64,000 bases of DNA from NCBI GenBank assembly GCA_910587325.1, contig CAJUKB010000004.1, positions 16,988 to 80,987 of the forward strand, written 5' to 3'. Positions 4,701 to 54,911 of this stretch are shown piece after piece. A program made the translations under genes and the position numbers. Below the pieces are notes generated by a model. It was given only the letters and a program-made list of their open reading frames with translations. It was not told where the DNA came from and searched no databases. Positions within the stretch are counted from its first letter, which is position 1. Each line of letters begins with the position of its first letter. Source of the DNA: an uncultured Bacilli bacterium (GTDB lineage Bacteria > Bacillota_I > Bacilli_A > RF39 > UBA660).

Positions 4701-5106
4701 AAAAGCCAGTTCCCCTTGCTGCATAGATATCACTATGGTCTCCAAAAATAGATAAAGCGTGTGTTGCAATTGTACGACTTGCAACATGTATAACACCCGG
4801 TAAACATTCTCCTGCCATTTTATACATATTAGGAAGCATTAACAAAAGTCCTTGACTTGCAGTGAATGTTGTTGCAAGTGACCCAGTAATTAAAGCCCCA
4901 TGCATGGCACCTGATGCACCTGCTTCACTTTGCATTTCAATAAGTTCTACTTTGTTATTAAAAAGATTTCTTTTTCTAGTATGATTCAAATAATCGATAT
5001 TTGAAGCCATTGGACTTGAAGGCGTTATAGGGTAAATTGAAGCTACCTCACTAAATAGATAAGCTATATTAGAGCACATCTTATTGGCATCCATCACTTT
5101 TTTCAT
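1750..5106 (-). CDS. nifJ: Pyruvate:ferredoxin (flavodoxin) oxidoreductase (PFOR)
   Basis: 1118 aa. Two 4Fe-4S ferredoxin motifs (CIECGRCSFVCP and CTSCGLCINICP), TPP-binding GDGWAYDIGFGG, and typical PFOR domain order. Confidence 0.9.
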   Translation of the reverse strand: MKKVMDANKMCSNIAYLFSEVASIYPITPSSPMASNIDYLNHTRKRNLFNNKVELIEMQSEAGASGAMHGALITGSLATTFTASQGLLLMLPNMYKMAGECLPGVIHVASRTIATHALSIFGDHSDIYAARGTGFCMLASTNIEDVRTNAAVAHLSSIEGSLPFLHFFDGFRTSHELHSVEEIEDTEFLKLINYDKINEYKRKMLNVDNNIEKGLASNEDIYFQSVEARNKYYNAMPNIVNQYMEKVNAICGTQVKPFNYYGSEDAENVIIAMGSVVDTIKLVVEEENKKGAKIGVVEVHLYRPFSVEYLKKVLPKTVKKIAVLDRTKEAGSIGEPLYLDVLSALKNEHIQIVGGRFGLSSKNTTPSDIYSVFKMLDNELKDNFTIGIADDVTNLSLEKNDYSISLDVKEILIYGFGSDGMVSASKDILSLALSKLDKFGDGYFEYDSKKSGGVTVSNLRIKNQEFYSPFYVTNPMLVVVTKDEYFKKYSMLNTIKENGILLVNTSNAHLLEEKISKEDKEIIKKKHIKVLTINASEIALENKIKGKINKIMEVVILNLIGIPNSLELVSKTIEELFKNKGEEVILNNKKAIESAIDSVIEITLKEDGYTKNNPQTLFECINRREGYDIPVSALESVCIGSFVGGTSKLEKRKIADKVAKWIPENCIECGRCSFVCPHSVIRSFKTEDKRFGKPMLGSEKYNYLVSVSEADCTSCGLCINICPGLKGEKALTFGEYEEENQKISDYYFNHYENPESEKKDTVKDLSFVRPYFEFSGACAGCGETSYIRLLTQLVGKKLVIANATGCSSIYGGSIPSTPYTIPWANSLFEDNAEFSFGMLMSYKQKRNHIESIMKTSLPAVEDELKEKFELWLKNKEDFEITYTLKEELASLPIPNDLKDLLDYIPARSVWAIGGDGWAYDIGFGGIDHVLSSNEKIKVLVLDTEVYSNTGGQMSKSSKVGQVAEFADFGKKNAKKDLFKIAMCYPNCYVGSICLGADFAHTIKTLKEAEAHDGPSIVIAYSPCVEHGIKGGLSCTNQEQALAVEVGYQLLMRYHPQEEKLYLDSKEPNFELYESFLDNETRYHALKIKDEKLASELLEINKQNAIKRYQEYKEKSTNK

Positions 5107-5213
5107 TAAAACACTTCCTTTATTTTTTTATATTATATCACGATTTTTATAAATATACGTTGTTTTCATTTCTTTTGTACGCTATAATTTTCTTAAGAAG
5201 AAGGAAAACAAAT

Positions 5214-5562
5214 ATGAACGAAGAAATGCAAAAGTTATATGAAAACATGTGCTCTGTAGCTAGAAGTACAAATGACAAATTAGATTATTTAAAATGGATT
5301 TTAAATGGATAATGGCATTAAAATAGGAATGGATTACTTCTCCTTCTAGTTTAGAGTACCAAATCATCGAAACGCCCTATGGAAAACAAGAAATAAGCAA
5401 AGAAGAATTAAAAACATTGTTTTCTATTGTAAACTCTATTCACGAAGATGTGGAACAATTAACTAAGAAAACCAATCAAATTCAATTTGACAACGGTTTA
5501 TCTTCTTCCCTTCGTTCAAGTTTTTCATCTATACAAGAAGAACCGAATTTTTTAGCTAAATA
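5214..5562 (+). pseudogene. Small hypothetical gene (~110 aa if contiguous) disrupted by a 35-nt repeat-flanked insertion or frameshift
   Basis: ORF1 5214-5312 (MNEEMQKLYENMCSVARSTNDKLDYLKWILNG*) continues in the +2 frame (WITSPSSLEYQIIETPYGKQ...FLAK*) after a 35-nt segment at 5301-5335 flanked by 8-bp direct repeats AATGGATT. Promoter-like and RBS (AAGGAA) elements lie upstream. Confidence 0.3.
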
Positions 5563-5657
5563 ATTTGTAAGTCTAATTGTGTAAACTAGTGTCAAGAAAT
5601 GTTGTATAACTTTCTTTTTTTCCTTTATAATAAAATTAGGAAATAGAGGAGGAAAAT

Positions 5658-6017
5658 ATGTTAAAAGAGATATTAAATAATAAATTAGATAACTTATCAG
5701 CAGATTTAATTGAAGTTCAAAAAGATTTAGATGTTTGTTATAGGGGTTTTAAAAATATTAACTCAGATGATGAACGACATGAAATGATACAATTTTTATT
5801 AACAGTTCAAAATAATATGCTAAAAAATAGAGAAGAAATAGATAAAACTCTAAAACAACTTAAATTAGTGATAGAAGTTGAACAAGTTGAAAATGCTAAT
5901 GATTATGTAAAAGCTCTTTCAGAGGAAGATGTGCAATTATTAAGAGAAGCTTTTTATACCCCTTCACATCAAAATGATACACAATCGGAGGTTTTTGATA
6001 GTTCAATAACAAGATAA
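5658..6017 (+). CDS. Hypothetical coiled-coil protein
   Basis: 119 aa with strong RBS GGAGGAAAATATG. I recognise no conserved motif. Confidence 0.45.
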   Translation: MLKEILNNKLDNLSADLIEVQKDLDVCYRGFKNINSDDERHEMIQFLLTVQNNMLKNREEIDKTLKQLKLVIEVEQVENANDYVKALSEEDVQLLREAFYTPSHQNDTQSEVFDSSITR

Positions 6018-6035
6018 AAGTTATATTTAAGCATG

Positions 6036-6076
6036 AAAAAAGTATGTTCTTTTTATTTAGAAATCATACTTTTTTT
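6036..6076. terminator. Hairpin (11-bp stem AAAAAAGTATG/CATACTTTTTT) between convergent genes, putative bidirectional terminator
   Basis: Inverted repeat followed by a T-run, located between the stop of 5658-6017 (+) and the stop of 6075-7358 (-). Confidence 0.45.
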
Positions 6077-7358
6077 ATATATTCTTTTTCTTACTTACGA
6101 ATAAATAACCAATTCCTACAAGAGAGACAACAGCAAGTCCACTATGTAAGAAAACATTTAAGGTACCCGTTTGAGCATTATTGGTATTTTCTACTAAGAC
6201 ATATTCACTGCAATGTTCTAAAGCAAATTCTACAAAACCATTTTTTACTTCTAAGTTTTTAGCTGCTTCTTCTAACTTACCATTTTCATTATAATAATAT
6301 AATGTTAATTTTTTGCCGTTTTTAAATTGTTCTTCCACATTTACTTTTACTTTTGTTCCAGTTGGTAAAATTCCATGATAAGCAAATTCTAATACTACTG
6401 ATTTGCGATTTTTAGAAATTAAATTTTCAATTTTCTCTTTGTTAGTACTTTTACCAACATTTATATTTAAGTTTATGTTTAAATCGGTATTTTCTATTTT
6501 GCTACCATCAAAAGTCCAAGTATATAAAAGCTTATTTTCATCATTGTATGTAGAAATATTGGCTATATAACCACTTTGTTTAAACGCTTCTAAAGTATCT
6601 TTTGTTACTCCTGTTTCTCCTATGTATAATTCTACTTCATTGTTCTCAAAAACCGGTTTTACTTCTTCTAGCATTTCTTCAAGTGTTTTTTTATCCCAAT
6701 CCTTTATTGTAATAGTTTTAAAAATTTCAACTTCTTTAAAATTGATATTACGAAAACTCATAGAGAAGCCTTCTTCGTCTCCTCCGCCACCATAAGCTTG
6801 CCAATCAGGATATTTTTGAGGAATGACTTTATCAATTAATTCGTTAAGAACATCATGACCCTTTTCAATGCTTTCTACTTTGTTTTCTTTTGTATTATAA
6901 ATGATTGTTTCATAGTCATAATTCTTATCTTGTAAAAAGATTTCTACTAAAATGTCTGTAGTTGTAAAACTTTCATTTTGCATTTCATAAAATTGAGCAA
7001 TTGTCATACCAGAGGTTAACGCTGTATTTTCATCTACAATTGTTCCTTCTTCTTTATTTGCACTACATGTTGTGGAAGTAACAATTTTTAAACCATCTGT
7101 TTCACATTTGCCATCTGAACAACTTCCACCAAATTGTTCATTATTTACATTTCTAATTAGAAGATTAATTCTCTCTGTTTGATTATTTAAAGTCATATTT
7201 TTAAGTAATTTAAATTTAACTCCTAATTTATTATCTTCTTTCTTTACACATAAATTGTTTAAATCAATAAAGTTAGAAGTCTGTTCTTCTGCTTGGACAT
7301 TTGCAGAAATACTTAAAGTAAATAATGCAAGTAATATTCCTATTATTTTCTTTTTCAT
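6075..7358 (-). CDS. Sortase-anchored surface protein with C-terminal NAQTG sorting signal (paralog of 8415-9926)
   Basis: 427 aa. Signal peptide MKKKIIGILLALFTLSISANVQA. C-terminus is NAQTGTLNV followed by a hydrophobic stretch and a KKKNI tail. The C-terminal region is homologous to that of 8415-9926. Confidence 0.7.
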   Translation of the reverse strand: MKKKIIGILLALFTLSISANVQAEEQTSNFIDLNNLCVKKEDNKLGVKFKLLKNMTLNNQTERINLLIRNVNNEQFGGSCSDGKCETDGLKIVTSTTCSANKEEGTIVDENTALTSGMTIAQFYEMQNESFTTTDILVEIFLQDKNYDYETIIYNTKENKVESIEKGHDVLNELIDKVIPQKYPDWQAYGGGGDEEGFSMSFRNINFKEVEIFKTITIKDWDKKTLEEMLEEVKPVFENNEVELYIGETGVTKDTLEAFKQSGYIANISTYNDENKLLYTWTFDGSKIENTDLNINLNINVGKSTNKEKIENLISKNRKSVVLEFAYHGILPTGTKVKVNVEEQFKNGKKLTLYYYNENGKLEEAAKNLEVKNGFVEFALEHCSEYVLVENTNNAQTGTLNVFLHSGLAVVSLVGIGYLFVSKKKNI

Positions 7359-7386
7359 TTTTTCTTTCCTTTCCTATGATAAGCTC

Positions 7387-7415
7387 ATTATACCCCCACC
7401 CGAAGGCTTTGTCAA
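7387..7415 (-). promoter_or_regulatory. Consensus promoter TTGACA-N17-TATAAT with an interrupted G-tract (GGGGGTGGG) in the spacer
   Basis: Minus strand: -35 TTGACA at 7410-7415, -10 TATAAT at 7387-7392, RBS AGGAAAGGAAAG before the ATG at 7358. Paralogous to the G10 promoter at 9970-10000. Confidence 0.5.
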
Positions 7416-7433
7416 GGTTTTTCGAGTATAAAA

Positions 7434-8309
7434 TTAATCTATTCGTTTGGCATGAATTACCCGTCTTTTGGTCGTTCCTCTTGCACCAGCGCAAGTAGAA
7501 AGCGTAAGGATTTTATCATTCGTATTCACAGTTACATCTCTAAAGCCAAAACTTCTATTTTTTATGGTCGTTATAAATTCTTGAAAGGCATTTTTATTTT
7601 CAAAAGAAGTTGTAATATAGTATTCTTCCATTTCAATTGTATAATAACTAAAGATTTGGTATTTATGTAACGTATGTTCCAAATCAAATAAATAAATCAT
7701 ATCGGCATTTTCTTCTTCAAAGTAATTTTTTTTAAAGATATCACTTAAAGAACCAAACATTGTATTATTAGGAGTGTGATGACCAAATAAAACCACATTG
7801 TCATCTTCTAAAGAAGTATTTCGATAATCCATAAAGATACTTCCAATTGAATTTTCTTTTTTCTTAAAAGAATGATTTAGATAGTAAGTATTATCACTTG
7901 CTTGGACGATGGGATTATTAACGTATTTATGGTTTAATACTAACCATCCGACAATATCATTATTCGTTTGTTTTAATTTAGAAAAATCAATTTTCATTTC
8001 TTCCACGTTTTCTTTTTCCTCAATTCCTTCATAAACTTCTGGTGGTTCGATAAATTCATCTAAAAGTTCTTCGATTTCATTTTGATTTTCTTTTAACTCT
8101 TTTTTAAACGTAATTAATTGATACATAGAAAAAAGGAAAACACTAATAAAAAACAAAAGTAAAAGCAAACGAATTATTTTTTTATATTTCAATTTTAATT
8201 TTCTTTTTGATTTTTTTCCTTTCTTTTTTGATTTTATTTTTTGCTTATTTTTTGAAGTTTTTAAATTAGCATGAGCAATATCATTGTTTTTCTTTTTGTT
8301 TTTATTCAT
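7434..8309 (-). CDS. srtB: Class B sortase
   Basis: 291 aa. Lys-rich N-terminus plus TM. Motifs DIVGWL, LFGHH and catalytic LTLSTC, typical of SrtB-type sortases. Flanked by two proteins carrying an N-A-Q-T-G signal. Confidence 0.75.
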   Translation of the reverse strand: MNKNKKKNNDIAHANLKTSKNKQKIKSKKKGKKSKRKLKLKYKKIIRLLLLLFFISVFLFSMYQLITFKKELKENQNEIEELLDEFIEPPEVYEGIEEKENVEEMKIDFSKLKQTNNDIVGWLVLNHKYVNNPIVQASDNTYYLNHSFKKKENSIGSIFMDYRNTSLEDDNVVLFGHHTPNNTMFGSLSDIFKKNYFEEENADMIYLFDLEHTLHKYQIFSYYTIEMEEYYITTSFENKNAFQEFITTIKNRSFGFRDVTVNTNDKILTLSTCAGARGTTKRRVIHAKRID

Positions 8310-8336
8310 GTATTATCCTTCCATTCTTTATAAACC

Positions 8337-8366
8337 ATCTTACGATTAAAGCAAAAAGATTGTCAA
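8337..8366 (-). promoter_or_regulatory. Putative sortase promoter (TTGACA-18-TAAGAT)
   Basis: Minus strand: -35 TTGACA at 8361-8366, -10 TAAGAT at 8337-8342. An AT-rich hairpin GTTTTAAAA/TTTTAAAAC lies just upstream and may be a terminator for the preceding gene. Confidence 0.35.
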
Positions 8367-8414
8367 TAAAAAAGTTTTAAAACCAAATATTTCAATTTTA
8401 AAACTCTTTTTGTT

Positions 8415-9926
8415 TTATTGTTCTTTTTTCTTACTTATAATTAAGTACCCTATTCCTAACAAAGAAACAACAGCAAGTCCACTATACAAGACAACATTTA
8501 AAGTACCCGTCTGCGCATTGTTATTCTTTTTATGGTATCCATCACTTGGAACCAAAACATAGGTTGAGAAATGAGTAAATGTTAATTTTACATTGCCATC
8601 GGTTGCTTTTAAATTTTCTGCTACAACTTCCATTTGGTTTGTTTCAGGATTAAGGTATAATAGGGTTAAAGTTTTATTTTGTAGATAGTCCTTTACTTTT
8701 TCATTTACTTCTTTTTCTTGGACTGTCCAGCAAGCATTATATTTGTCTGGCTCTTTCTTATAATCGTATTGACTACATTGATATTTCTCATCTAATTTTT
8801 CCCAATATAAATTTCTAATATATTGTTCAATATTCACATTTAATTCATAATTCGTTGGTAAATTACCATGGTAGGTAAAATCAATATACAAAGCGTCATT
8901 TAAATCCATTAAATTGGCAATTTTGTCTTTGTTAATGCTTGTTTTCATTGAAATTTGATGTTCATAAGTAAAGCCTTTTTCCACCGTATTTTTTATATCT
9001 TTACCATTTAAATAGTAAGTCGAAGTTCCTACACTCGTGTCTTGAATAAACAAAACGGTTAAGTCTTTTCCTTTTAAAGCGTTAATTACTTCTGATATAT
9101 CTTCTTTAGAACTTCGAACTGAAAAATTATATTTTCCATAGCCATAAATACAGTCATGTGGAGAGTCTGGCATCACTTCTTGATACTTATCCAAATGGTT
9201 CAATATTTGAGTTAAACCTGCCGCACTTGAACCCATTTCACCGAAATCTCTTGCAGATATTGTCCAGTCAATTTTTATATCTTGTTTTCCAGTAGCACTT
9301 ACTGTTATACTAGATTTGCCTAAATCTTTTGCTTTGGTTACAACTTCTACTCCTGTAGGTTCACTGCTATATCCATAAGCTTCCCACCAAGTTTTCGGTT
9401 CACTTTTATAGTTACTAAACCCATATTCATTTGTATATTCCCACCAAGTTGGTTTTGAGGTGTAAGTAGATTTGCAATATTCACTATCCTTTGAGAAGTT
9501 ACCGTTTTCATCTTGACAATATTCATAATTTTTTAAGAACTCTTCAAAAGTGGCCTTGTTAAAATCTTCAACGTATCTTTCCCAATTTTGTTTTTCATTG
9601 GCATAATCATAAGGTTTTACTTCTACATCTAAAATGTTTGTGTTACTACTAACTGCAGAAACATTAGACACATTCTCAAAAAGAATATTTTCATTGTAAG
9701 GTTTGTTGTGAAAAGGCTTGTGAGGGTCCCAACTTCCTCGTCCTCCTTCATCATTATGCGCAATGCTATATTCCATTTGCATGTTTTCCCATTTTGTAGC
9801 ACCATAAGTTCTTGAAAGCGCTCTATCTTTAAAATACTCTTCCCAGTATCCATCCGCATAAACATTTGCACTTCCTAAAAATAAAAGTGTTGCAAATATC
9901 CCCAAGTAAGTAATTATTTTTTTCAT
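8415..9926 (-). CDS. Sortase-anchored surface protein with NAQTG sorting signal
   Basis: 503 aa. Signal peptide MKKIITYLGIFATLLFLGSANVYA. C-terminus NNAQTGTLNVVLYSGLAVVSLLGIGYLIISKKKEQ. Confidence 0.7.
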   Translation of the reverse strand: MKKIITYLGIFATLLFLGSANVYADGYWEEYFKDRALSRTYGATKWENMQMEYSIAHNDEGGRGSWDPHKPFHNKPYNENILFENVSNVSAVSSNTNILDVEVKPYDYANEKQNWERYVEDFNKATFEEFLKNYEYCQDENGNFSKDSEYCKSTYTSKPTWWEYTNEYGFSNYKSEPKTWWEAYGYSSEPTGVEVVTKAKDLGKSSITVSATGKQDIKIDWTISARDFGEMGSSAAGLTQILNHLDKYQEVMPDSPHDCIYGYGKYNFSVRSSKEDISEVINALKGKDLTVLFIQDTSVGTSTYYLNGKDIKNTVEKGFTYEHQISMKTSINKDKIANLMDLNDALYIDFTYHGNLPTNYELNVNIEQYIRNLYWEKLDEKYQCSQYDYKKEPDKYNACWTVQEKEVNEKVKDYLQNKTLTLLYLNPETNQMEVVAENLKATDGNVKLTFTHFSTYVLVPSDGYHKKNNNAQTGTLNVVLYSGLAVVSLLGIGYLIISKKKEQ

Positions 9927-9969
9927 AATTTTTCTTTCCCTTCCTTAGAATATCTCTATTCTTAAGGCT

Positions 9970-10000
9970 ATTATACCCCCCCCCCGAAAACGTTTGTCAA
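9970..10000 (-). promoter_or_regulatory. Consensus promoter TTGACA-N19-TATAAT with a G10 homopolymer in the spacer (candidate phase-variable promoter)
   Basis: Minus strand: TTGACA at 9995-10000, G10 at 9976-9985 within a 19-nt spacer, TATAAT at 9970-9975, RBS AAGGAAGGG before the ATG at 9926. Confidence 0.55.
9976..9985. repeat. C10/G10 homopolymeric tract
   Basis: Ten consecutive C on the plus strand in DNA of about 25-28 % GC. Confidence 0.9.
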
Positions 10001-10019
10001 TACCCAAACTGTTTTTATT

Positions 10020-10979
10020 CTAATTTTCTCTTTTTGTTCTTTCCTTATCCATTTCTTTAATAATATACACAGGTCTTTTCTTTGCTTCTAAATATGTTTT
10101 AGAAAGATATTCTCCAATGATTCCTAAACAAAACAATTGAATGCCACTAACCAAAAATAAAATGCAAATCATAGAAGGCCAACCACTGGTTGGGTCTCCA
10201 AATAAAATGGTTTTTAAAACAATCACTAAAATCATTATAAAAGAAATGACACAAAATAGAATACCTATAAACGCTGAAATTGTTAAAGGCATTGTTGAAA
10301 ACGAAACTATTCCCTCAATGGCATATTTAAAAAGACTAAAAAAAGACCAACTTGTTTCTCCAGCAATTCTTTCTTTGTTTTCATATTCGAGCCATTTCGT
10401 ATTAAAGCCTACAAATCCAAATAATCCTTTAGAAAAACGATTGTATTCTTTTAAACTTAAAATGGCATTTCTAACATTCTTTCGCATTAAACGATAATCT
10501 CTTGCTCCATCAACAACTTCAATGTTGCTAATTTTGTTTATCAATTTATAAAACATTCTGGCAAAAAAACTACGAATTTTTGGTTCTCCCATTCTGGTAA
10601 CTCTTCTAGTAGCAACGCAATCTACATCTTTTTCACTTTTTAAAATGGCAAACATTTCAAGGAGAAGTTCAGGAGGGTCTTGTAAGTCAGCATCCATTAA
10701 AGCAACATAATCTCCTTTGGCATATGTAAGACCTGCTAACATAGCCGCTTCTTTACCAAAATTTCTTGATAAAGAAAGATAGTGAATACTTGAATTACGT
10801 TTACATAAGTCTTTCATTATTTTTAAGGTATTGTCTTTGGAACCATCATTGACAAGAATAAGTTCAACGTCTGTTTTTTTGAGTTCTTTTTTGATTTTTA
10901 AGATTTCATGATAAAAGAGTGGCAATGCCTCTTCTTCGTTATAACAAGCAACTACAATACTTATGGTTTCCTTTTTCAT
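10020..10979 (-). CDS. GT2 polyprenyl-phosphate glycosyltransferase (GtrB/CsbB/ArnC-like)
   Basis: 319 aa. SIVVACYNEE, DGSKDNT and DADLQD motifs, with two C-terminal TM helices typical of GtrB-like enzymes. Confidence 0.8.
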   Translation of the reverse strand: MKKETISIVVACYNEEEALPLFYHEILKIKKELKKTDVELILVNDGSKDNTLKIMKDLCKRNSSIHYLSLSRNFGKEAAMLAGLTYAKGDYVALMDADLQDPPELLLEMFAILKSEKDVDCVATRRVTRMGEPKIRSFFARMFYKLINKISNIEVVDGARDYRLMRKNVRNAILSLKEYNRFSKGLFGFVGFNTKWLEYENKERIAGETSWSFFSLFKYAIEGIVSFSTMPLTISAFIGILFCVISFIMILVIVLKTILFGDPTSGWPSMICILFLVSGIQLFCLGIIGEYLSKTYLEAKKRPVYIIKEMDKERTKREN

Positions 10980-12634
10980 TTTGTTTTCTCCTTTTTAATG
11001 ATTAAATAGATTGCAAATAAACCTACAGTGAATAAACTTATTTTATTTCCTACTCTACCTAGTGTAGTATTTTCATAAGTTACTTCGATGATTGCTTCTT
11101 GATTGGCTTCCATTTCGATAAAGCCATACTGGTTTTCTTTATAGTTGAGAAAAGTACTTTCACCGTTATAACCCATCATTTTTATGGTATATCCCAAATA
11201 ATATAATCTAGGTAGTTCTAGCTTTGCATAGTTTGTATTGGTAATTTTAAATCTTAAATTAGGAGTACTGTCTTCTATAATGCTTATATCGGCGTTTCCA
11301 TCGACGACTAAAATTTCTGTACTTCGATTGTGAAAGTAATCGATATGGTTTTTTGCATTCATCGGCAGATACTCTTCTTGGTACCCCATACCAACCTGAC
11401 TTAAATCGTAATAGCTCAAATCTTCTTTATGATACGTTTGCATGAGTATCGGAAGAATGGCAAAAAGAAAACAAGAAAAAATACAAAGTGCGAGCACTTT
11501 TTTTGATTTTAATTCGTTTAGAGCATAGTAAGACAATATGCTTAATCCAAAACATGTAAGTACTCCTAAGCGATAAGGAAATTGAATCATCAGTAAAAAG
11601 TTTGGCATTAAAAACCACGGGAATAAATGGGAAGAAAACCATATTCCTAGACATGTACAAATAACGCCCAAACAAAATAAAAAATCATTCTGAAGTTTTT
11701 CTTTAAATTTGTGTCTCTTCTTTAATTCATAAAGCAAATAAATGACTAGACCAAGAGCTACCCAATTTAGCATGTGAAAACCTATTTTTTTGCCACCAAG
11801 CAAGAATTGAAATAAGAACAAAGCATTGCCATACACACCAAAACGATTAGACATTTCGCCCTTTGTAAAAGCAACGTAATTTCCATTTAACAGATGAGTA
11901 AATAGTGGAATTAGAAACGGAAGGCTGATTAAAATGACTAAAAAGGTTGCGCATAATAAACGAAGAATAGTTTTTTTATTCCAAACTTTTTTAAAATGAA
12001 AAATAAGAAATATGCTTAAGAAAAGAGTTACGTAAATACTCATTACTAAGTGGGAGTTCAGTAGTCCAACGTATCCTAAGACAAAATAAAAATAAAATTT
12101 TTTAGACTGATTGTGGAACAAATAATAAATACCTAAAAAAATGAGAGGTAAAAATACAAAAACAAAAGATTCCGCTAATGCATCACGATATAAATAATCG
12201 TAAATTTTATAAGGTGCCGTTATATAAAATAGTGTAGCAATAAAGGATAAGTTCTTATGTTTTGTAATGGTTTTCATAAAAGTATACATCGTAATACCCG
12301 ATAAAAAGTTCAGTAAAAAATCGGTTATTTTGATGGATGTAAAAATAGTTCCAGGGGTATATTTATAAATAAGTGCTGTTATAAAATGAGGAAGATTGGG
12401 ATAGAAAATATTGGTTCCATAGCCAAAGTTATTGGCAATGAACGGAAGAATTTTTAAGTTTGCTATATTGGACCATTGTAAATTTTTAATAAAAGAGAGA
12501 ACATTAGCTACATGAAAACCCGTATCATGGCCATAAAAATAGTTATTACTTAATAGTGGAAAAAGTAGAAAGATTGAAATTAAAAAAATAAAAAAATAAT
12601 ATTTATCTATTTTAATTGGTATTCTTTTGTGCAT
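10976..12634 (-). CDS. Polytopic membrane protein, putative GT-C type glycosyltransferase (GtrC/YfhO-like partner of GtrB)
   Basis: 552 aa with more than 10 predicted TM segments. Start overlaps the stop of the GtrB-like gene. RBS AAAGGAGAAA. Confidence 0.45.
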   Translation of the reverse strand: MHKRIPIKIDKYYFFIFLISIFLLFPLLSNNYFYGHDTGFHVANVLSFIKNLQWSNIANLKILPFIANNFGYGTNIFYPNLPHFITALIYKYTPGTIFTSIKITDFLLNFLSGITMYTFMKTITKHKNLSFIATLFYITAPYKIYDYLYRDALAESFVFVFLPLIFLGIYYLFHNQSKKFYFYFVLGYVGLLNSHLVMSIYVTLFLSIFLIFHFKKVWNKKTILRLLCATFLVILISLPFLIPLFTHLLNGNYVAFTKGEMSNRFGVYGNALFLFQFLLGGKKIGFHMLNWVALGLVIYLLYELKKRHKFKEKLQNDFLFCLGVICTCLGIWFSSHLFPWFLMPNFLLMIQFPYRLGVLTCFGLSILSYYALNELKSKKVLALCIFSCFLFAILPILMQTYHKEDLSYYDLSQVGMGYQEEYLPMNAKNHIDYFHNRSTEILVVDGNADISIIEDSTPNLRFKITNTNYAKLELPRLYYLGYTIKMMGYNGESTFLNYKENQYGFIEMEANQEAIIEVTYENTTLGRVGNKISLFTVGLFAIYLIIKKEKTK

Positions 12635-12655
12635 ATAATTTTCTCCTTTTTAATA

Positions 12656-12686
12656 ATTATAACCCCCCCCCCAATGAAAAAGACAA
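12656..12686 (-). promoter_or_regulatory. Promoter-like TTGTCT-N19-TATAAT with a G10 tract in the spacer
   Basis: Minus strand: TTGTCT at 12681-12686, G10 at 12663-12672, TATAAT at 12656-12661, RBS AAAGGAG before the ATG at 12634. Confidence 0.5.
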
Positions 12687-12805
12687 ATACAATCGAGTTC
12701 AATTTAGGGCTATGAATTCAAAAGAAAAATAACCTTTTTTAAATAAGAGTTATTTTTTCTAAATTATATGCTGTAAGATTTCTTTTAAGTATCATACTAT
12801 AAAAC

Positions 12806-14422
12806 TTATTTTTCATAAGAAAGTAAAGGAATTAAAAAATCAAAAGGAAGCATTAATACAAATATATAAACATACCTTAAACTAAAAGCAATGGGCACTC
12901 CTATCATAATGGGAATCCAAATAAATAATCCAGGTATATATAAAATTAAATATCTATATTTTTTAGTTAAAAACGTAATGGTTATGCTTAAGAAGAAGAG
13001 CCAAATAAAGAATGCAGATGAAATAATTGGAAATGAATCTATTGTTTTTCGTAAAGAAAAATGAAACAATTCCTGTAGCAAATCTCTTTGCTCTACTAAA
13101 TCCGTATGTGTAGGCCATGTATAGGTTTGGATATAGGCGACACTGCTATTTTTTTTAATATCCCAATAACCAAGTGTTTGTAAAAGATAAGCCTCTATAT
13201 AGTTGTTAAAATTTTTGGGTAACAATCTAAACCAAATGTTAAAAAACTCTATTTTGTGAGAATTCAAAAAATCTTTATTAAAATCGTTGTTCCATTTTGT
13301 TGTATCAAAATTAAGGGGTTTAGCAGCAGTTTTCAAAACCTCTATTGGAATAATTTGATTTAGAAATTCTTTATCTTTTTCTTCTAAAGAAGCATCTTTT
13401 TTAACAGAATAAGAAATTTGTTGGAAAGGAATAGAAACACTTTCAATGAAATTATCCCCTTTTAAATGCAAATAGGAATAAATAGGTCCTTGTATCGCAA
13501 CGACAATTAAAATTAAACTCAAAATCGATAGTAAGAATTGTTTATTTATACTTTTTTTACATCTATAGTGACAAATAATAAGTACAAGAGTTGTTCCTAA
13601 AACTACAAAAAAACCATTATTCCTTAAGAAACAAACAAATAAAGATAATATGCAATAGAAAATTATGTCTTTTTTATTTTTGAAATCTGCTCGTGAACTC
13701 GTAAAAATATCAAAAAGAAAAGCAATATAAATGATTAAAACAAAATTAAATGGAGTATCTTTCCATATAGAAATAACATATAAAGGTATAAGCGGAAATA
13801 GTGCAAAGAAAGCAAGTACTAAAAAAGTCACCCTTTTTGGCAAGTTTTTCTTATGAATCACATATATAACATAACTTAATGCTAAGGCACAACCGATATA
13901 TTGAAAGAACCCAAAAAGAAGAATTCCCCCTGTTAAACCACTGCCTAAAATAGAACTTCCTAATGAAGTAAAGATTTTTAATGTAATGGTATACAAAATT
14001 GGATTATTATTGGATAAAAGACCAATTCCATTTACTTTAAAATTGGAAAGTTGTACGATAGAAGCATAAGTATCCGAATAAATTCCTCCTGGAAAATAGG
14101 ATAAAAAATAAGGAAGCCACGTAAGTAGTAATACACCAAAAGCAATCCAAAACAGATGAGGTATTTTTTTCGTATTTGCTTTTTCCATTTTTTTATTTAT
14201 ATGTTCATATATCTTTTGAAAAAAAGTAATAAAAATATAAGTAATGAAAAAGAAAATAATTTCTTTTCCAAAATCCTTAACGTGAAAGGAAGCAAAGGAA
14301 ACATCTGAAAAAACATTTATTTCTTCATTGCATATTAATTTTGAATCAAGCACTAACATGAAAGAAAAGACAAAAGAAAAAATGCTTTTTATAAAAATTG
14401 GTTTTTTCCATAATTTTTTCAA
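12806..14422 (-). CDS. Polytopic membrane protein, putative GT-C family glycosyltransferase
   Basis: 538 aa, multiple TM helices. The start may be an internal Met (MEKANTKK). Confidence 0.4.
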   Translation of the reverse strand: MKKLWKKPIFIKSIFSFVFSFMLVLDSKLICNEEINVFSDVSFASFHVKDFGKEIIFFFITYIFITFFQKIYEHINKKMEKANTKKIPHLFWIAFGVLLLTWLPYFLSYFPGGIYSDTYASIVQLSNFKVNGIGLLSNNNPILYTITLKIFTSLGSSILGSGLTGGILLFGFFQYIGCALALSYVIYVIHKKNLPKRVTFLVLAFFALFPLIPLYVISIWKDTPFNFVLIIYIAFLFDIFTSSRADFKNKKDIIFYCILSLFVCFLRNNGFFVVLGTTLVLIICHYRCKKSINKQFLLSILSLILIVVAIQGPIYSYLHLKGDNFIESVSIPFQQISYSVKKDASLEEKDKEFLNQIIPIEVLKTAAKPLNFDTTKWNNDFNKDFLNSHKIEFFNIWFRLLPKNFNNYIEAYLLQTLGYWDIKKNSSVAYIQTYTWPTHTDLVEQRDLLQELFHFSLRKTIDSFPIISSAFFIWLFFLSITITFLTKKYRYLILYIPGLFIWIPIMIGVPIAFSLRYVYIFVLMLPFDFLIPLLSYEK

Positions 14423-31461: not shown

Positions 31462-32227
31462 CTGTAAACAACGGGAGTTTTATAATCTAAGGAACCATGA
31501 ATGCGAATGTTATTATACCAGTTTACATAATCAAATAACTCGCACTCTAACTCCTCAAATGAGGAAAATCTTCGGTTATAAGCAAACTCCGTTTTTATGA
31601 TTTTATATGTCGCTTCTGCTACCGCATTGTCATAGGGACAGCCTTTTTTAGATAGGGATCTCTTTATTCCAAATGTTTCTATTAATTCCTCTATGATTTT
31701 ATTTTTAAATTCATTTCCTCTGTCTGTATGAAATATATTTATCTTTCTTAAATCATAAGAAATTTTACTGAATGCTTTATAACTAGTTTTGCATCCTTAT
31801 GAATTCCTGCTGCATACCCTATAATTTCTCGATTCCATAAATCGAGTATTAAACAGATGTAATTCCATTTTCCTGCTACATTTACATACGTTAAATCACT
31901 TACGACTACATCTAATTGTTTTTCTCTTTCAAATTCTCGATTTAAGATATTTTCTCCTTCTTCCTCATTGCAAGATGCTTTATGTACTTTAAATTGTTTA
32001 ACTGTATAGTTACTTACTAAACCATTTAAGTCCATAATTTTTCTTATTCTTCTTAGACTTACTTGGTAGCCTAATTCTTGCAATTTTACTTTTATTTTTC
32101 TTGAGCCATAATTATTTCTACTTTCTTTAAATATCTTTATGATTAATTCTTCTAGTTCTTTATCTTCACGTTTGTTTTTTCTTTCGTAGTAGACAAGAGC
32201 TCTGGACACTTTTAGAGTTTTACACAT
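31462..32227 (-). pseudogene. IS3-family transposase OrfB (DDE integrase core), frameshifted
   Basis: The 159-aa ORF 31748-32227 carries the rve-domain N-terminal half. The remaining C-terminus (...HGSLDYKTPVVYRQQMSL*) lies in another frame between 31462 and about 31750. Confidence 0.55.
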
Positions 32228-32268
32228 TGCACTGATACTATACTTGTCTCGATTGGCTTTTATTATTT

Positions 32269-32559
32269 TTATTTTCGTCCCATTATCAGCGCTGCTTGCT
32301 TTAAAATATCATTCTCCATTCGCAACCGTTTATTTTCTTTCTCTAGTTCTATCAAACGATTCTCTTCTTCTGTTCGATTATCTTTTGCTTTAAAGGATCC
32401 TGTGGTGTTAAATTGTTTTATCCAATTGTTTAATGCTGATGGCGTTAATTCATATTCTCTTATTAATTCACATCGTTTTTTTCCGTTATTGTATAAGTTT
32501 ACTACTTGTTGTTTAAATTCTTCTGTATATTGTCTTTTTTCTCTTCGGTTACTTTCCAT
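32269..32559 (-). CDS. IS3-family transposase OrfA (HTH)
   Basis: 96 aa. MESNRREKRQYTEEFKQQVVNLY...LKQAALIMGRK is typical of IS3 OrfA. Confidence 0.75.
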   Translation of the reverse strand: MESNRREKRQYTEEFKQQVVNLYNNGKKRCELIREYELTPSALNNWIKQFNTTGSFKAKDNRTEEENRLIELEKENKRLRMENDILKQAALIMGRK

Positions 32560-32683
32560 TTTCTTTTCCTTCTTTCTTACTTCTCATATTATAATCTGTC
32601 CTTTTCTTTTTTGTCTAATTTATTGTAACCAATCCAATATGAAAATGTACTAATTTTTATTATGATAAAAGTGGTGATAAAAA

Positions 32684-33930
32684 GTGGCAAAAATTGCAAA
32701 AACATTGAAAGAATTAAAAGAAAATTTAGAAATAGAAGATTACATAGAAGAAACAGAAATAGAAAATTATGATTTGCATATTCTAACAAATGAGATAAAT
32801 GAAGAAGCATCTTATTTAATGGATAAACGAGAAGAAGAATATATAAAACACTCTTTAGAAGATATAGTAATCATAGTAATATTAGGATTATTTGCAAATA
32901 GTAACACCTTTGTAGAAATTGAAATATTTGCAAAAAAACATTATGAATGGCTTAGGAATTATCTAGAACTTTCTTATGGTTTGCCTTCTATTTGTACAAT
33001 TAAAAGAGTAATAGCAGCATTGAATCCGAAAGAATTAGAGGAAATGTGTAATCATGTTTTTTTAAACTTTGTAAAAGTAACTCAAAAACCAATATATGTA
33101 AAAAATGGATTAAAATTGATGGATATAAATAGTTTAGATGGAAAAACGGCAAATAATTCTAAAAGAAACACAATAGAAGGATATATAAAACCAACAAATG
33201 CGATGAGTGCCTATTCTGTTGTTAATGAAAAATGTTTAGCAACAGAATTTATAAGTGAAAAGACAAATGAAATACCAACATGTCCAAAATTATTAAAAAG
33301 GTTAAATATCAAAGATGTAGCAATCACATTTGATGCTTTAAACACCCAAAAAGATACAATAGATTACATAGTAAAAAATGAGGGATATTATGTTGCACCC
33401 ATAAAAGATAATCAAAGCATACTAAAGGAAGATTTGGAACTATATTTTCAAGATTTATATTTAATAAAAGTTGGAAATGCCAAAGTGTATGAAGAAATAG
33501 AAAAATCTCATAATCAAGCAGAAAAAAGAACATATATATTTACGAATGATATAGATTGGATATACTAAAAAGAAAAATGGTCAGATTTAAAAAGTATAGG
33601 TGTACTTATAAAAGAGATAAATGGAGAAGAAAAAGAAAGAAAATATTTCATAAGCAATATAAAGGCAAATCATATAGAAATATTATCTAAAATAATTAGA
33701 AATGAATGGAGCATAGAGAATAAGTTACATTGGTATTTAGACATGGTATTTTTAGAAGATAAGAATAAATGTTATATTGAGAATAGTCAAAAAAACTTAA
33801 ATATAATGAGAAAATTTTGTCTTGGAATATTAAAAATAGTGAAATCTCATTACAATATGAGCATGAATTCTATTCGTTTTCAATTGAGTATTGATTTTGA
33901 AAATGAAATAGAGCAACTTCTTAAATTGCT
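32684..33930 (+). pseudogene. ISAs1-family (H-repeat-associated) transposase with an internal TAA stop
   Basis: N-terminal DDE_Tnp_1_assoc-like region (DIVIIVILGLFANSNTFVEIEIFAKKHYEWLRNYLELSYGLPSICTIKRVIAAL). A single in-frame TAA at 33566-33568 (DWIY*KEKWSDLKSIG) is followed by the conserved C-terminus (WSIENKLHWYLDMVFLEDK...). Confidence 0.65.
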
Positions 33931-41238: not shown

Positions 41239-42393
41239 TTACCAAATTTTTTTGTAACTCTCTACTACTAGTTTCCATGTATATTCTTTTTTTATTCTAT
41301 CTTTGGCAAGATTCTCATATTTTTTGATTGTTTTGTCATCAAATTTTTCTACTTTTTCAATCTGTCTTTTTAAGTCTCCTTTTTGTTTGCTGAAATAGAA
41401 AGAAGACATCATACCAACTTCTACATTGTAAATTGCATTAAATAAAATATTTAATTTTGTGCTTGCTAGTGCTTCTAAAAGAGAAGGATTTGTTCCTCCT
41501 GCACTATGTCCATGAATATAAGCATAAGCATTTCGTCTTATGTAAAGAAGCGTTGCATGATCGTAAACGGAACCAATAAATTTAATTCTTGCATCACTCG
41601 AAAAGCACGTTTTCTTTTCTAGTTCTTTATAAAACTTATTTTCTTCTACATTGGATACAATGACTAAATCCCTTTTAGTATCGCTACTCATGAACTCTTT
41701 TATCATAAGTTCATAGTTATTTTCTGGTACAAATCGCCCGACAATTAGATAATAGTTATTTTCACTTATTTGATATTTTTTATACAATTCTTTAACAATA
41801 TTTGTTTTACACTCTTTTTCATTTAAATAGGCCCCGTAAGGAATAAAATAAGATGGTTTATGAAACTTTTTATATTTTGTATCTATGTATTCTTTAATCG
41901 CTTTTGAATCACTTATTATTCCATCACTGTGCTTAACCATACAGTATTCACTTATTTTAAAACACTTTTTTATCCACCATGCCCATTTATCACGCATCCA
42001 TTCAAGTCCATCAGGATTTAAATAAATTTTGATTCCTTTCTTTTTTAATGGACGTACTAAAAAAGGATAAAACGGCCCCATACGACAACCCAGTACGTAA
42101 ACCATTGAATTTTCTAAATTATTTTTTTTAATGTATTTTTTCATTCGTTTTAATGCTACTATTGCATAGATAAACATGGTTACAAATCCAACTTTAGGGG
42201 AATAGACTTGCAAACAAGAAACCTGATCTTTTTCGATTATTTTTTTATTCTCTTTTTTATTGTGAGTCAGTTCTGGAACATGAAACTTGGTATTTTTATC
42301 ACAATAGTTTTCTATTAAATTGGTTACAAAGGTTTCCCAACCCCCGTAATTAGATTTGTATCCACGTGCTCCAATTATTATAATATTTTTCAT
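41239..42393 (-). CDS. GT4 glycosyltransferase with a DUF1972-type N-terminal domain
   Basis: IIIIGARGYKSNYGGWETFV N-terminus and a C-terminal GT4 region. I take the start at the Met preceded by RBS AAGAGGAAA (42393). The ORF track's upstream Met is at 42417. Confidence 0.6.
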   Translation of the reverse strand: MKNIIIIGARGYKSNYGGWETFVTNLIENYCDKNTKFHVPELTHNKKENKKIIEKDQVSCLQVYSPKVGFVTMFIYAIVALKRMKKYIKKNNLENSMVYVLGCRMGPFYPFLVRPLKKKGIKIYLNPDGLEWMRDKWAWWIKKCFKISEYCMVKHSDGIISDSKAIKEYIDTKYKKFHKPSYFIPYGAYLNEKECKTNIVKELYKKYQISENNYYLIVGRFVPENNYELMIKEFMSSDTKRDLVIVSNVEENKFYKELEKKTCFSSDARIKFIGSVYDHATLLYIRRNAYAYIHGHSAGGTNPSLLEALASTKLNILFNAIYNVEVGMMSSFYFSKQKGDLKRQIEKVEKFDDKTIKKYENLAKDRIKKEYTWKLVVESYKKIW

Positions 42394-42404: not shown

Positions 42405-43328
42405 TTAATAATTCCATTTTATTTTATTAAAGCAATTTATACCCCCCCCCCGTTTGAATTTGTTATAGAGATTACGAATTTTACTAATGTATGTCCAACT
42501 TTTGCTATTTAATATTTGTTTTAAAGAATCATGAGATTTAGTCAATTCATTATTTAATTTTTTTATTATTGTTTCTTGTTTTTGATTTTGCATTTTCATA
42601 TTATTGAAATCTTTTTCTAGTGTCGTTATTTTTTCATTTAGTTCCTTTATGATAACTTCTTTGCTTTTATTATGTTCGTGGATAAAAAAGTAATCGTTGT
42701 TATACCATAAAACATTTATGAATTGTACTTTTTTGTATTTGTGTTTCCAAAGGGAGTACATAAAGGAAAGTTGATCTCTTCTACTGTATCGTTTTACCAT
42801 ATTCCACCAACAATTTTGTACTTTTTTAATTTTGCTATTATTAGTTTTAAATGCAAAAAAATTATTAGCAGTAAGTCCATAATGTTCGGGAAAATTTTCT
42901 TTTTTTAAAAATGTCATTTCTTCCTCAATAATCTTTTTATCGTCTTTTTTCCAATCAATACATACTATTGCCTCTTCATAAATACAATCTCTATCGGAAT
43001 GGATAAGAGAAAAAAAGTCGTAATTTTTAAGGTCACATTCTTTTTTAATAAACTCACTAACTGGTTTTCTTAATTCTATATTAGCGTCCATATAAATGGC
43101 CAAATCATAATTTTTAAAGATTTCTTCACAACCAAGAATTTTGATTTTTCTTTCTAATCTAATGAAATCTAAGAGTTCTGGATTATCTAAGGACATAATT
43201 TTCCAAGTTTTGCTTTTAATGTTTGGGTTATTTGTAAAACAATAATAATCTATTTCTTTATCTATATACTTTATTTCTTTTAAGGTATCATAATCTCCAG
43301 TTATTGCTGTATATACCATAGTTTTCAT
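42405..43328 (-). CDS. Putative glycosyltransferase-like protein (DUF616/TOD1-MUCI70-like) with a coiled-coil C-terminus
   Basis: 307 aa. N-terminal AITGDYD motif. The C-terminal Gly-Gly-Gly is encoded by the G10 tract. Confidence 0.4.
   Translation of the reverse strand: MKTMVYTAITGDYDTLKEIKYIDKEIDYYCFTNNPNIKSKTWKIMSLDNPELLDFIRLERKIKILGCEEIFKNYDLAIYMDANIELRKPVSEFIKKECDLKNYDFFSLIHSDRDCIYEEAIVCIDWKKDDKKIIEEEMTFLKKENFPEHYGLTANNFFAFKTNNSKIKKVQNCWWNMVKRYSRRDQLSFMYSLWKHKYKKVQFINVLWYNNDYFFIHEHNKSKEVIIKELNEKITTLEKDFNNMKMQNQKQETIIKKLNNELTKSHDSLKQILNSKSWTYISKIRNLYNKFKRGGGINCFNKIKWNY
42442..42451. repeat. C10/G10 homopolymeric tract inside the 3' end of CDS 42405-43328, followed on the minus strand by TATAAA
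   Basis: Encodes RGGGI 16 codons before the stop. On the minus strand G10-TATAAA lies 42-60 nt upstream of the ATG of 41239-42393. Confidence 0.9.
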
Positions 43329-53484: not shown

Positions 53485-54897
53485 TCACTTTTTTCTTCTT
53501 TTTTCATCTTCCCAAAAATCAAAATTATCAAATTTATCTAATTTTTCTTTTAAGGAAGTGTCTTGGGTTTCTTTTGTTTCTTTCTCTGTATTTTGTTCTA
53601 TTTTTATTTCTTGCACAAGTTCTTCTTTTTCTAGTTTTTTAACATCCGCTTTTGAATTTCTATTTATTTTTTTCTTATGTTTGTTCTTTTTCTTTAATAG
53701 ACATAAAATCAATAAGAAGGCAAATACTAAACCAACTCCAAAAGCAATACAAATATACATATAAGTATTTAAATCTTTAGTTAAACTTTCCACTTCCTCT
53801 TGATTCCATACTTGGAAAGTTCCTTCTTCTGTATCATAACTATAATAATCGTATTTTCCTGTTTCAATGTTCATACCATAGCAAATGACAAAACGACTAT
53901 TTTCACTTAAACGATATATAGGAACTTCTACTTCGTTAATGCTTATTGTTCCATTAGTATAATTTTTAAGTTCGTTAGGAAAATCCGTCAAGTATAGAGT
54001 CAAAGCATTCGCATTTAATTCGTTATAAATAGTGTAAGTATTATTCTCTTCATTGTAGATAGCTAGTATCACTTTGCCTGTTGTATCCTTAAGTCCCACT
54101 AAAGTAAATCCAGTTGTTTCACTATAAAAAGCTGGAATGGTAAATCCATTTATTTCTATTGTTTTTTCTTCATACATATTGAGCTGTGGTAAACTTTTGC
54201 CATTTTTAATAATCGTGTAAGATTTTTCTCCTATCTTGACTTCAATTGGATTCGTATCTTCTACGTTCACATTGATAACATATGTTTTCGTAGCTCCACT
54301 TTCTGCTGTTACCACTACATTAAAGGTATTGATACCTTCTGATACTTCTACTTCTCCTGTTCCTGAAACACTTGCATGTGATTCATTTGCTTTGGCGGCG
54401 ATTTTAACAGAATTGACAGTAGATGGAACTGTTACAGAGTATTCTAAGGTATCTTTGTTGAATGATGGAGTAAGTTCATATCCTTCAATAGATAAAGAGG
54501 CTAGATTTGCATCCGTTGCTTTTTCTCTTACAGGAACCACTGTTACTCTTTTAGAAGCAGATACGTTTGTGGTTGCTCCATCTTTACTAGTAATATCTCC
54601 AGTAGCAGTAAAGGAAATCATTCCTAAACTCGTAGCTTTACATGTCACAGTTAGTGTTTTAGTTGTATTATTTCCGTTACTTGTAGAATCTGCAAAGCTT
54701 TGGGTACACCCACTTGTGGAACCGGCAGAAACAATTTTTACATTCCAAGCTGCCGTTCCTTTTAATGTTAATGTTGCTTTTACAGTACTTCCTAATTCTA
54801 CGCTTGTTGGAGCGCTTAAAGAATAAGTTGCTGCTGCATGCACCATATAGGGGCACAAACTAAACAAACATAACAAACGAATTAACTTTCTTTTCAT
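53485..54897 (-). CDS. Secreted, membrane-anchored surface protein with a cadherin-like beta-sandwich domain
   Basis: 470 aa. Signal peptide, an ANLASLSIEGYELTPSFNKDTLEYSVTVPSTVNSVKIAAKA region typical of the clostridial cadherin-like domain, a C-terminal TM helix and a charged K/E-rich tail. Confidence 0.5.
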   Translation of the reverse strand: MKRKLIRLLCLFSLCPYMVHAAATYSLSAPTSVELGSTVKATLTLKGTAAWNVKIVSAGSTSGCTQSFADSTSNGNNTTKTLTVTCKATSLGMISFTATGDITSKDGATTNVSASKRVTVVPVREKATDANLASLSIEGYELTPSFNKDTLEYSVTVPSTVNSVKIAAKANESHASVSGTGEVEVSEGINTFNVVVTAESGATKTYVINVNVEDTNPIEVKIGEKSYTIIKNGKSLPQLNMYEEKTIEINGFTIPAFYSETTGFTLVGLKDTTGKVILAIYNEENNTYTIYNELNANALTLYLTDFPNELKNYTNGTISINEVEVPIYRLSENSRFVICYGMNIETGKYDYYSYDTEEGTFQVWNQEEVESLTKDLNTYMYICIAFGVGLVFAFLLILCLLKKKNKHKKKINRNSKADVKKLEKEELVQEIKIEQNTEKETKETQDTSLKEKLDKFDNFDFWEDEKRRKK

Positions 54898-54911
54898 TTC
54901 ATCCCTCTATT

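Follow-up and report, generated by a model that had tools for sequence, protein, structure and literature searches.

The site at 7415–7387 on the minus strand of the window (the whole 64-kb stretch of DNA that was analyzed) is best explained as a locked allele of a contingency promoter, a reading that we consider probable as a whole. A G homopolymer between the −35 and −10 hexamers, unbroken and of varying length in most contigs of the same species, appears to have been interrupted by a G-to-T substitution in the lineage of the window. As judged from the compared contigs, the locked state would be a derived, minority, and lineage-specific allele.

Read on the minus strand, the site is TTGACA-aagccttc-GGGTGGGGG-TATAAT with a spacer of 17 nt (Table 1). 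The original prediction, made from the letters of the window, had placed a TTGACA...TATAAT architecture 5′ of a gene for a NAQTG protein, with the tract broken by a T and the spacer at the optimal 17 nt, and direct reading confirmed each of these points. The spacer had been divided as aagccttcg-GGTGGGGG; the total length stands, and the boundary was moved after comparison with relatives, which places the tract in the nine positions following an 8-nt flank. GGGTGGGGG equals G9 in length. The end of the −10 hexamer lies 28 nt from the ATG of the 427-aa protein gene (7358), and AGGAAAGGAAAG, a purine-rich RBS, is located between them. The site was the sole 12/12 promoter match within 5000–13000. 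Perfect TTGACA-N16-19-TATAAT matches were found only twice in the 64-kb window (7387–7415 and 9970–10000; expected count 0.23, with two reached in 4 of 100 shuffles), both of them 5′ of NAQTG genes. When the two upstream regions were compared, the promoter elements (cTTGACAaa..ttc-G tract-TATAAT) and the RBS region were common to both, which bears out the proposed homology to the G10 promoter at 9970–10000.

Table 1. Features of the studied locus and of the other G-tract sites in the window (functional names are predictions)
Feature	Position	Strand	Remarks
−35 hexamer TTGACA	7410–7415	−	part of the 12/12 consensus match, spacer 17
8-nt fixed flank aagccttc	7409–7402	−	direct read
Interrupted tract GGGTGGGGG	7393–7401	−	equivalent in position to conspecific G9–G12
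Tract makeup	GGG 7401–7399, T 7398, GGGGG 7397–7393	−	
−10 hexamer TATAAT	7387–7392	−	part of the 12/12 consensus match
427-aa secreted NNAQTG protein gene	6075–7358	−	signal peptide, TM helix, KKK tail
AT-rich hairpin then U run, terminator-like, after 427-aa gene	6034–6075	−	−10.7 kcal/mol, z −4.75
Class B sortase gene	7434–8309	−	TIGR03064 188.9 bits, cutoff 153.75; Pfam Sortase
Promoter-like TTGACA-18-TAAGAT before sortase gene	8337–8366	−	promoter scan
AT-rich hairpin and U run, terminator-like, after 503-aa gene	8368–8410	−	−14 kcal/mol, z −5.4, 0/200 shuffles
503-aa NAQTG paralogue gene	8415–9926	−	homology to 427-aa protein
Paralogous promoter TTGACA-aacgttttc-G10-TATAAT	9970–10000	−	spacer 19, tract 9976–9985
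GT2, PgfS/CsbB-like glycosyltransferase gene	10020–10979	−	
YfhO-like membrane protein gene	10976–12634	−	
TTGTCT-ttttcatt-G10-t-TATAAT	12656–12686	−	spacer 19, tract 12663–12672; 5′ of YfhO-like/GT2 operon
Cps2T/DUF1972 rhamnosyltransferase gene	41239–42393	−	Wzm/Wzt-type ABC exporter genes next
G10 and TATAAA	42436–42451	−	tract 42442–42451; 5′ of Cps2T-like rhamnosyltransferase (ATG 42393)

The layout, with a tract between recognizable −35 and −10 elements and 5′ of a gene, fits a homopolymer promoter-spacer contingency locus. The allele of the window, G3-T-G5, lacks the long unbroken tract that could slip at high frequency, and it is therefore read as a decayed or locked allele of such a locus, not as an active switch. 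The G run was also considered as an RNA structure or attenuator and rejected, as the folding of 7380–7440 was no better than that of shuffled sequences (z −0.34). A riboswitch or leader reading was left without support, as an Rfam search of the whole window at the gathering threshold returned no RNA family.

On the minus strand, the order at the locus is G10 promoter, 503-aa gene, hairpin, promoter-like site, sortase gene, studied promoter, 427-aa gene, and hairpin. The sortase stop codon is 18 nt from the studied −35 hexamer, and the same folding of 7380–7440 revealed no hairpin or terminator between the stop codon and the studied promoter. A consensus terminator scan of 5000–13000 found none, because it demands GC-rich stems and AT-rich stems are missed. 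Given the terminator-like hairpin and the separate promoter-like site 5′ of its gene, expression of the sortase probably does not depend on the G10 switch. A site resembling the latter, TTGACA-N18-TATTAT, is found 5′ of the sortase gene in a related species as well (L168).

Both NAQTG proteins have a signal peptide, NNAQTG(T/S), a hydrophobic helix (a TM helix predicted at 402–426 in the 427-aa protein), and a KKK tail. The sortase exceeds the cutoff of the class B model, and the adjacent genes have the features of its substrates; the 427-aa and 503-aa proteins are thus predicted to be substrates of sortase B. The two had been described as surface-protein paralogs, which holds for the C-terminal ~150–200 aa (36% identity, E 2e-25), comprising NNAQTGTLNV, the TM segment, and the KKK tail; no homology was found beyond this region. 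The family of the 427-aa protein is small (39 homologues, with N-A-Q-T conserved), and the protein gave no hit in Pfam or NCBIfam. Its AF2 model, of good confidence (pLDDT 85), is beta-rich and matched nothing at E ≤ 0.001 when searched with Foldseek against PDB. Conserved features of the NAQTG family are the HCSEYVL motif and N-A-Q-T-(G/S). A 3-nt (one-codon) indel at 9750–9758 distinguishes the 503-aa allele of the window from the 502-aa allele of most conspecific contigs.

Conspecific contigs were retrieved by exact-protein look-up from independent metagenome assemblies and were 97–99.8% identical to the window. Among 17 independent conspecific contigs, GGGTGGGGG was present only in the window and in L023, and the other 15 carried an uninterrupted G9–G12 at the 427-aa gene promoter: G9 in three (L001/L027, L028, and L030), G10 in nine, G11 in two (L008 and L024), and G12 in one (L006). 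At the 503-aa gene promoter, G10 was found in ten contigs (the window and nine others) and G12 in one (L024); at the promoter of the YfhO-like operon, G10 in four and G11 in one (L004); and at the tract of the Cps2T-like gene, G9 in one, G10 in five, and G11 in two. All these lengths are consensus values of metagenome assemblies, in which poly-G is error-prone. Tract length thus varies among contigs of this identity while the flanks are conserved, as is characteristic of contingency loci, and the variation in tract length foreseen for related genomes does occur. Net 1-base length differences among the aligned conspecific contigs were confined to the four G tracts, the remaining 1-nt gaps being compensated insertion/deletion pairs. 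Four A/T runs showed no length change among the contigs, although at only 8 nt they are a weaker control than G10 would require. Four contigs (L006, L032, L042, and L169), of which three are conspecific and the other belongs to a related species, start or end exactly at a G tract, which suggests length heterogeneity within samples, or poor read quality in poly-G.

The T at 7398 might be a sequencing or assembly artefact in a homopolymer whose true allele is G9, since runs of G are prone to error and L001, the nearest contig whose sortase is identical, carries a G9 of equal length. L023, however, shares the T in exactly this position of the tract, yet is distinct from the window, with 11 mismatches and 2 indels across 5.9 kb. 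It belongs to the NCBI MAG GCA_948716395.1, a different assembly, with a contig of 24.7 kb compared with 82 kb for the source of the window. The two share the same 427-aa protein allele, I246, with which the T co-segregates, and the T was found in 0 of the 15 other contigs. An artefact is therefore highly improbable, and the T is most simply taken as an inherited substitution of one sublineage, not a random error, with the reservation that the two MAG assemblies from which it is known are possibly not independent in study or sample. Relative to the window, L023 also has a 10-nt insertion around 5942 and, at 3422 inside the PFOR gene (there called as two ORFs), a 5-nt deletion. Both may be genuine lesions, or else errors in the assembly of the MAG.

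In related species, the module was traced through the sortase. In L020 and L021, whose sortases are 73–78% identical, both promoters are present with G10 at each, and the 5′UTRs are almost identical; the near-identity of the 5′UTRs of the two genes in L020 upholds the notion of a paralogous promoter module. In the group with 59–68% sortase identity, the upstream gene has a tract of G8 (spacer 17), G9, or G10. Within it, the upstream gene of L168 has G8 (spacer 17) and the downstream gene an uninterrupted G10, and L016/L017 have G10/G9 at the upstream gene and an interrupted tract, G6AGG vs G7AGG, at the downstream gene. The latter arose as an independent interruption, and it still differs in length (G6 vs G7). 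Another relative at 68% (L010–L015) has an ordinary promoter with a TG-extended −10 and no tract. Homologues at 40% identity have AT-rich upstream regions, and more distant relatives are without the module. A scan of genome contigs with the sortase yielded nothing closer than an Oscillospiraceae hit of 29% identity. Its presence in relatives and absence farther out indicate a duplicated, conserved, and clade-restricted promoter device, as far as the compared sequences tell, in which the tract was interrupted more than once.

The original prediction had gone further and taken the two paralogs as a phase-variable gene paired with a constitutive one, i.e., as a duplication followed by a division of labour in which the 427-aa gene is constitutive and the 503-aa gene phase-variable. 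The two promoters of the window match this picture (spacer 17 with a broken tract vs spacer 19 with G10), and so does the interruption at the downstream paralogue in a related species (G6-7AGG). As a property of the pair it is nevertheless very unlikely, and at the level of the species the sequences contradict it. The promoter of the 427-aa gene is unbroken in 15 of the 17 contigs, and its tract is more polymorphic than that of the 503-aa gene, opposite to the supposed contrast. Furthermore, L020/L021 and L168 carry G10 at the downstream gene, and the interrupted tract of L016/L017 is itself variable in length. The uninterrupted tracts of the 15 other contigs lead us to regard both paralogue promoters as contingency promoters in the species, with the locked allele restricted to the sublineage of the window and L023.

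For the locked contingency promoter, the following mechanism is proposed. The site would be the core sigma-A-type promoter of a gene for a sortase-B-anchored protein in a Gram-positive bacterium of 28% GC that is uncultured and has been encountered solely in metagenomes. The spacer, in this species and its relatives, would consist of 8–9 fixed bases (8 at the 427-aa gene and 9 at the 503-aa gene) and the G homopolymer, and slipped-strand mispairing would alter the number of Gs and hence the spacer length. The predicted spacers at the 427-aa gene are 17 nt for G9 or GGGTGGGGG, 18 nt for G10, 19 nt for G11, and 20 nt for G12, and those at the 503-aa gene 19 nt for G10 and 17 nt for G8. At sigma-70/sigma-A promoters, a 17-nt spacer is optimal and activity drops steeply beyond 18 nt. 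Longer spacers would grade transcription from maximal to poor, making this a porA-like contingency promoter with a "volume-control" function. In the lineage of the window, the G-to-T change at tract position 4 (7398) would have split a tract of G9 length into G3 and G5, so that slippage is largely abolished and the spacer stays at its optimum of 17 nt, with the switch naturally phase-locked and probably ON. The earlier designation of the promoter as locked ON is, given the interruption and the spacer, a fair prediction for this genome. The site itself, its polymorphism, and the recurrence of the interruption in a second assembly are seen directly in the sequences; that the promoter is active, that expression follows the length of the tract, and that switching has been lost is what we infer from them.

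Switching by a tract in the promoter spacer is already textbook knowledge from porA and PPA1880, and the present locus is a further example. In N. meningitidis porA, which has its tract between −35 and −10, 11G gives high surface expression, 10G about 2-fold lower, and 9G about 13-fold lower expression (PMC3639595). The likeness to porA (and opc) lies in a homopolymer (poly-G or poly-C) between the −35 and −10 of a surface-protein gene, in which 1-base slippage changes the spacer. The difference is that porA encodes an outer-membrane porin of a Gram-negative pathogen with switching proven by experiment, whereas the window holds an interrupted allele at the gene of a predicted sortase B substrate in an uncultured low-GC Gram-positive. 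For P. acnes PPA1880, the account drawn on here gives 11, 13, and 15 G with spacers of 18, 20, and 23 nt, and only the strain nearest to the consensus length secretes the protein (PMC3224659). That system (Propionibacterium/Cutibacterium acnes) is likewise Gram-positive, with a G tract in a putative promoter spacer and a secreted, adhesin-like protein, but the host is a high-GC actinobacterium and the protein is unrelated, and the same account describes no natural interrupted allele. In Bifidobacterium breve, also a gut commensal, replication slippage in a G tract controls sortase-dependent pili (PMC9187656) and thus sortase-dependent surface structures; there the tract lies inside a gene and, by frameshift, affects the translational reading frame of class C sortase pili and not the spacing of a promoter. 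Finally, in engineered poly-G of C. jejuni (MuGENT-SSR), replacing G residues in the run abolishes detectable switching (PMC8437040). By analogy, the allele of the window would be the natural equivalent of such a phase-lock, set at the strongest position, with the difference that the engineered tract is intragenic and has every third G replaced, whereas here one natural substitution leaves G5 and G3.

The tract might instead be hypermutable with little regulatory effect, either with read-through dominating or with the tract serving as a length-insensitive element (a regulator site or a substitute for the −16 region). That no hairpin or terminator follows the sortase stop codon ahead of the promoter is compatible with this, as is the promoter-like site 5′ of the sortase gene. 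The modal tract, G10, corresponds to spacers of 18–19 nt, which would be odd if expression were needed and counts against a simple ON assignment. We regard this explanation as rather unlikely: the perfect −35 and −10 hexamers that frame the tract are conserved across several species and at both paralogous genes, the dependence on the spacer is established for this class of promoters (porA, PMC3639595), and the same arrangement recurs in metagenomes, mostly 5′ of secreted proteins and lipoproteins and with lengths that differ between copies (see below). Part of it can be accommodated in the contingency promoter. With no terminator before the studied site, the 427-aa gene probably receives a basal level of expression by read-through from the sortase promoter, and the tract in unlocked strains would then be more a volume control than a strict ON/OFF switch.

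A metagenome scan for TTGACA-N7-11-G≥9-TATAAT matched at least 120 stretches, and the G-tract-spacer design is therefore common, not peculiar to the window. Eighty of these stretches were taken as loci (L043–L122; 81 sites); they range from 25 to 66% G+C, and many are from the human gut. Among the listed matches, the downstream ORFs (68 sites) had a signal-peptide-like N-terminus in 43 cases (~63%) and a lipobox-like motif in 25 (~37%), and copies of the same locus differed by 1–2 G. In the literature that could be searched, no description of G-tract-spacer promoters in low-GC gut Gram-positives was found. We tentatively suggest, with confidence somewhat short of even, that such promoters form a widespread and largely undescribed contingency class in gut and environmental Gram-positives, serving secreted proteins, lipoproteins, and wall-glycosylation operons; that at least four of them in the 64 kb of this species make up a combinatorial "phasotype"; and that point interruptions recurrently lock the switches by lineage.

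Most work on homopolymer promoter switches concerns a small number of pathogens, and the locus extends the device to an uncultured low-GC Gram-positive, where it would control sortase-B-anchored proteins and probably also cell-wall glycosylation. Its most useful aspect is a natural locked allele beside unlocked relatives, as such allele pairs allow the ON lengths and host-specific selection for locking to be tested with metagenome and metatranscriptome data. For annotation, the locus is a warning that an interrupted tract in one genome does not equal a constitutive gene unless the population is checked.

The G+C content of the window is 27.7%, and runs of at least nine G or C occur only at 9976–9985, 12663–12672, and 42442–42451. 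Each lies on the minus strand 5′ of a gene and abuts TATAAT or TATAAA (with one t between in the case of 12663–12672). The studied site is the only interrupted tract of the window with such a layout; a search of the whole window for interrupted G tracts abutting TATAA found none besides these four sites, bar a marginal, G-poor one at 5959–5967. The G10 promoter site at 12656–12686, 5′ of the YfhO-like/GT2 operon, looks like a switch by which a wall or teichoic polymer is glycosylated in a phase-variable manner, judging by the genes that follow. The tract at 42442–42451 sits within the last codons of a TOD1_MUCI70-like ORF (42405–43328), where it encodes RGGG, and gene calling gives this ORF 307, 300, or 296 aa depending on the tract length.

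The window also contains a cell-wall polysaccharide cluster of ~40 kb, with many GT2/GT4 genes, a Wzx-like flippase, an acyltransferase, LicD, choline-type kinase/nucleotidyltransferase genes, a BCCT transporter, and an LCP protein with a PASTA domain. Inside it, transposase fragments (HTH_21; DDE_Tnp_1_assoc) were observed at 31748–33568. Two adjacent genes on the minus strand at 53485–56666 encode cadherin-like beta-sandwich and dockerin type I domains, an unusual pair beside a wall-polysaccharide cluster.
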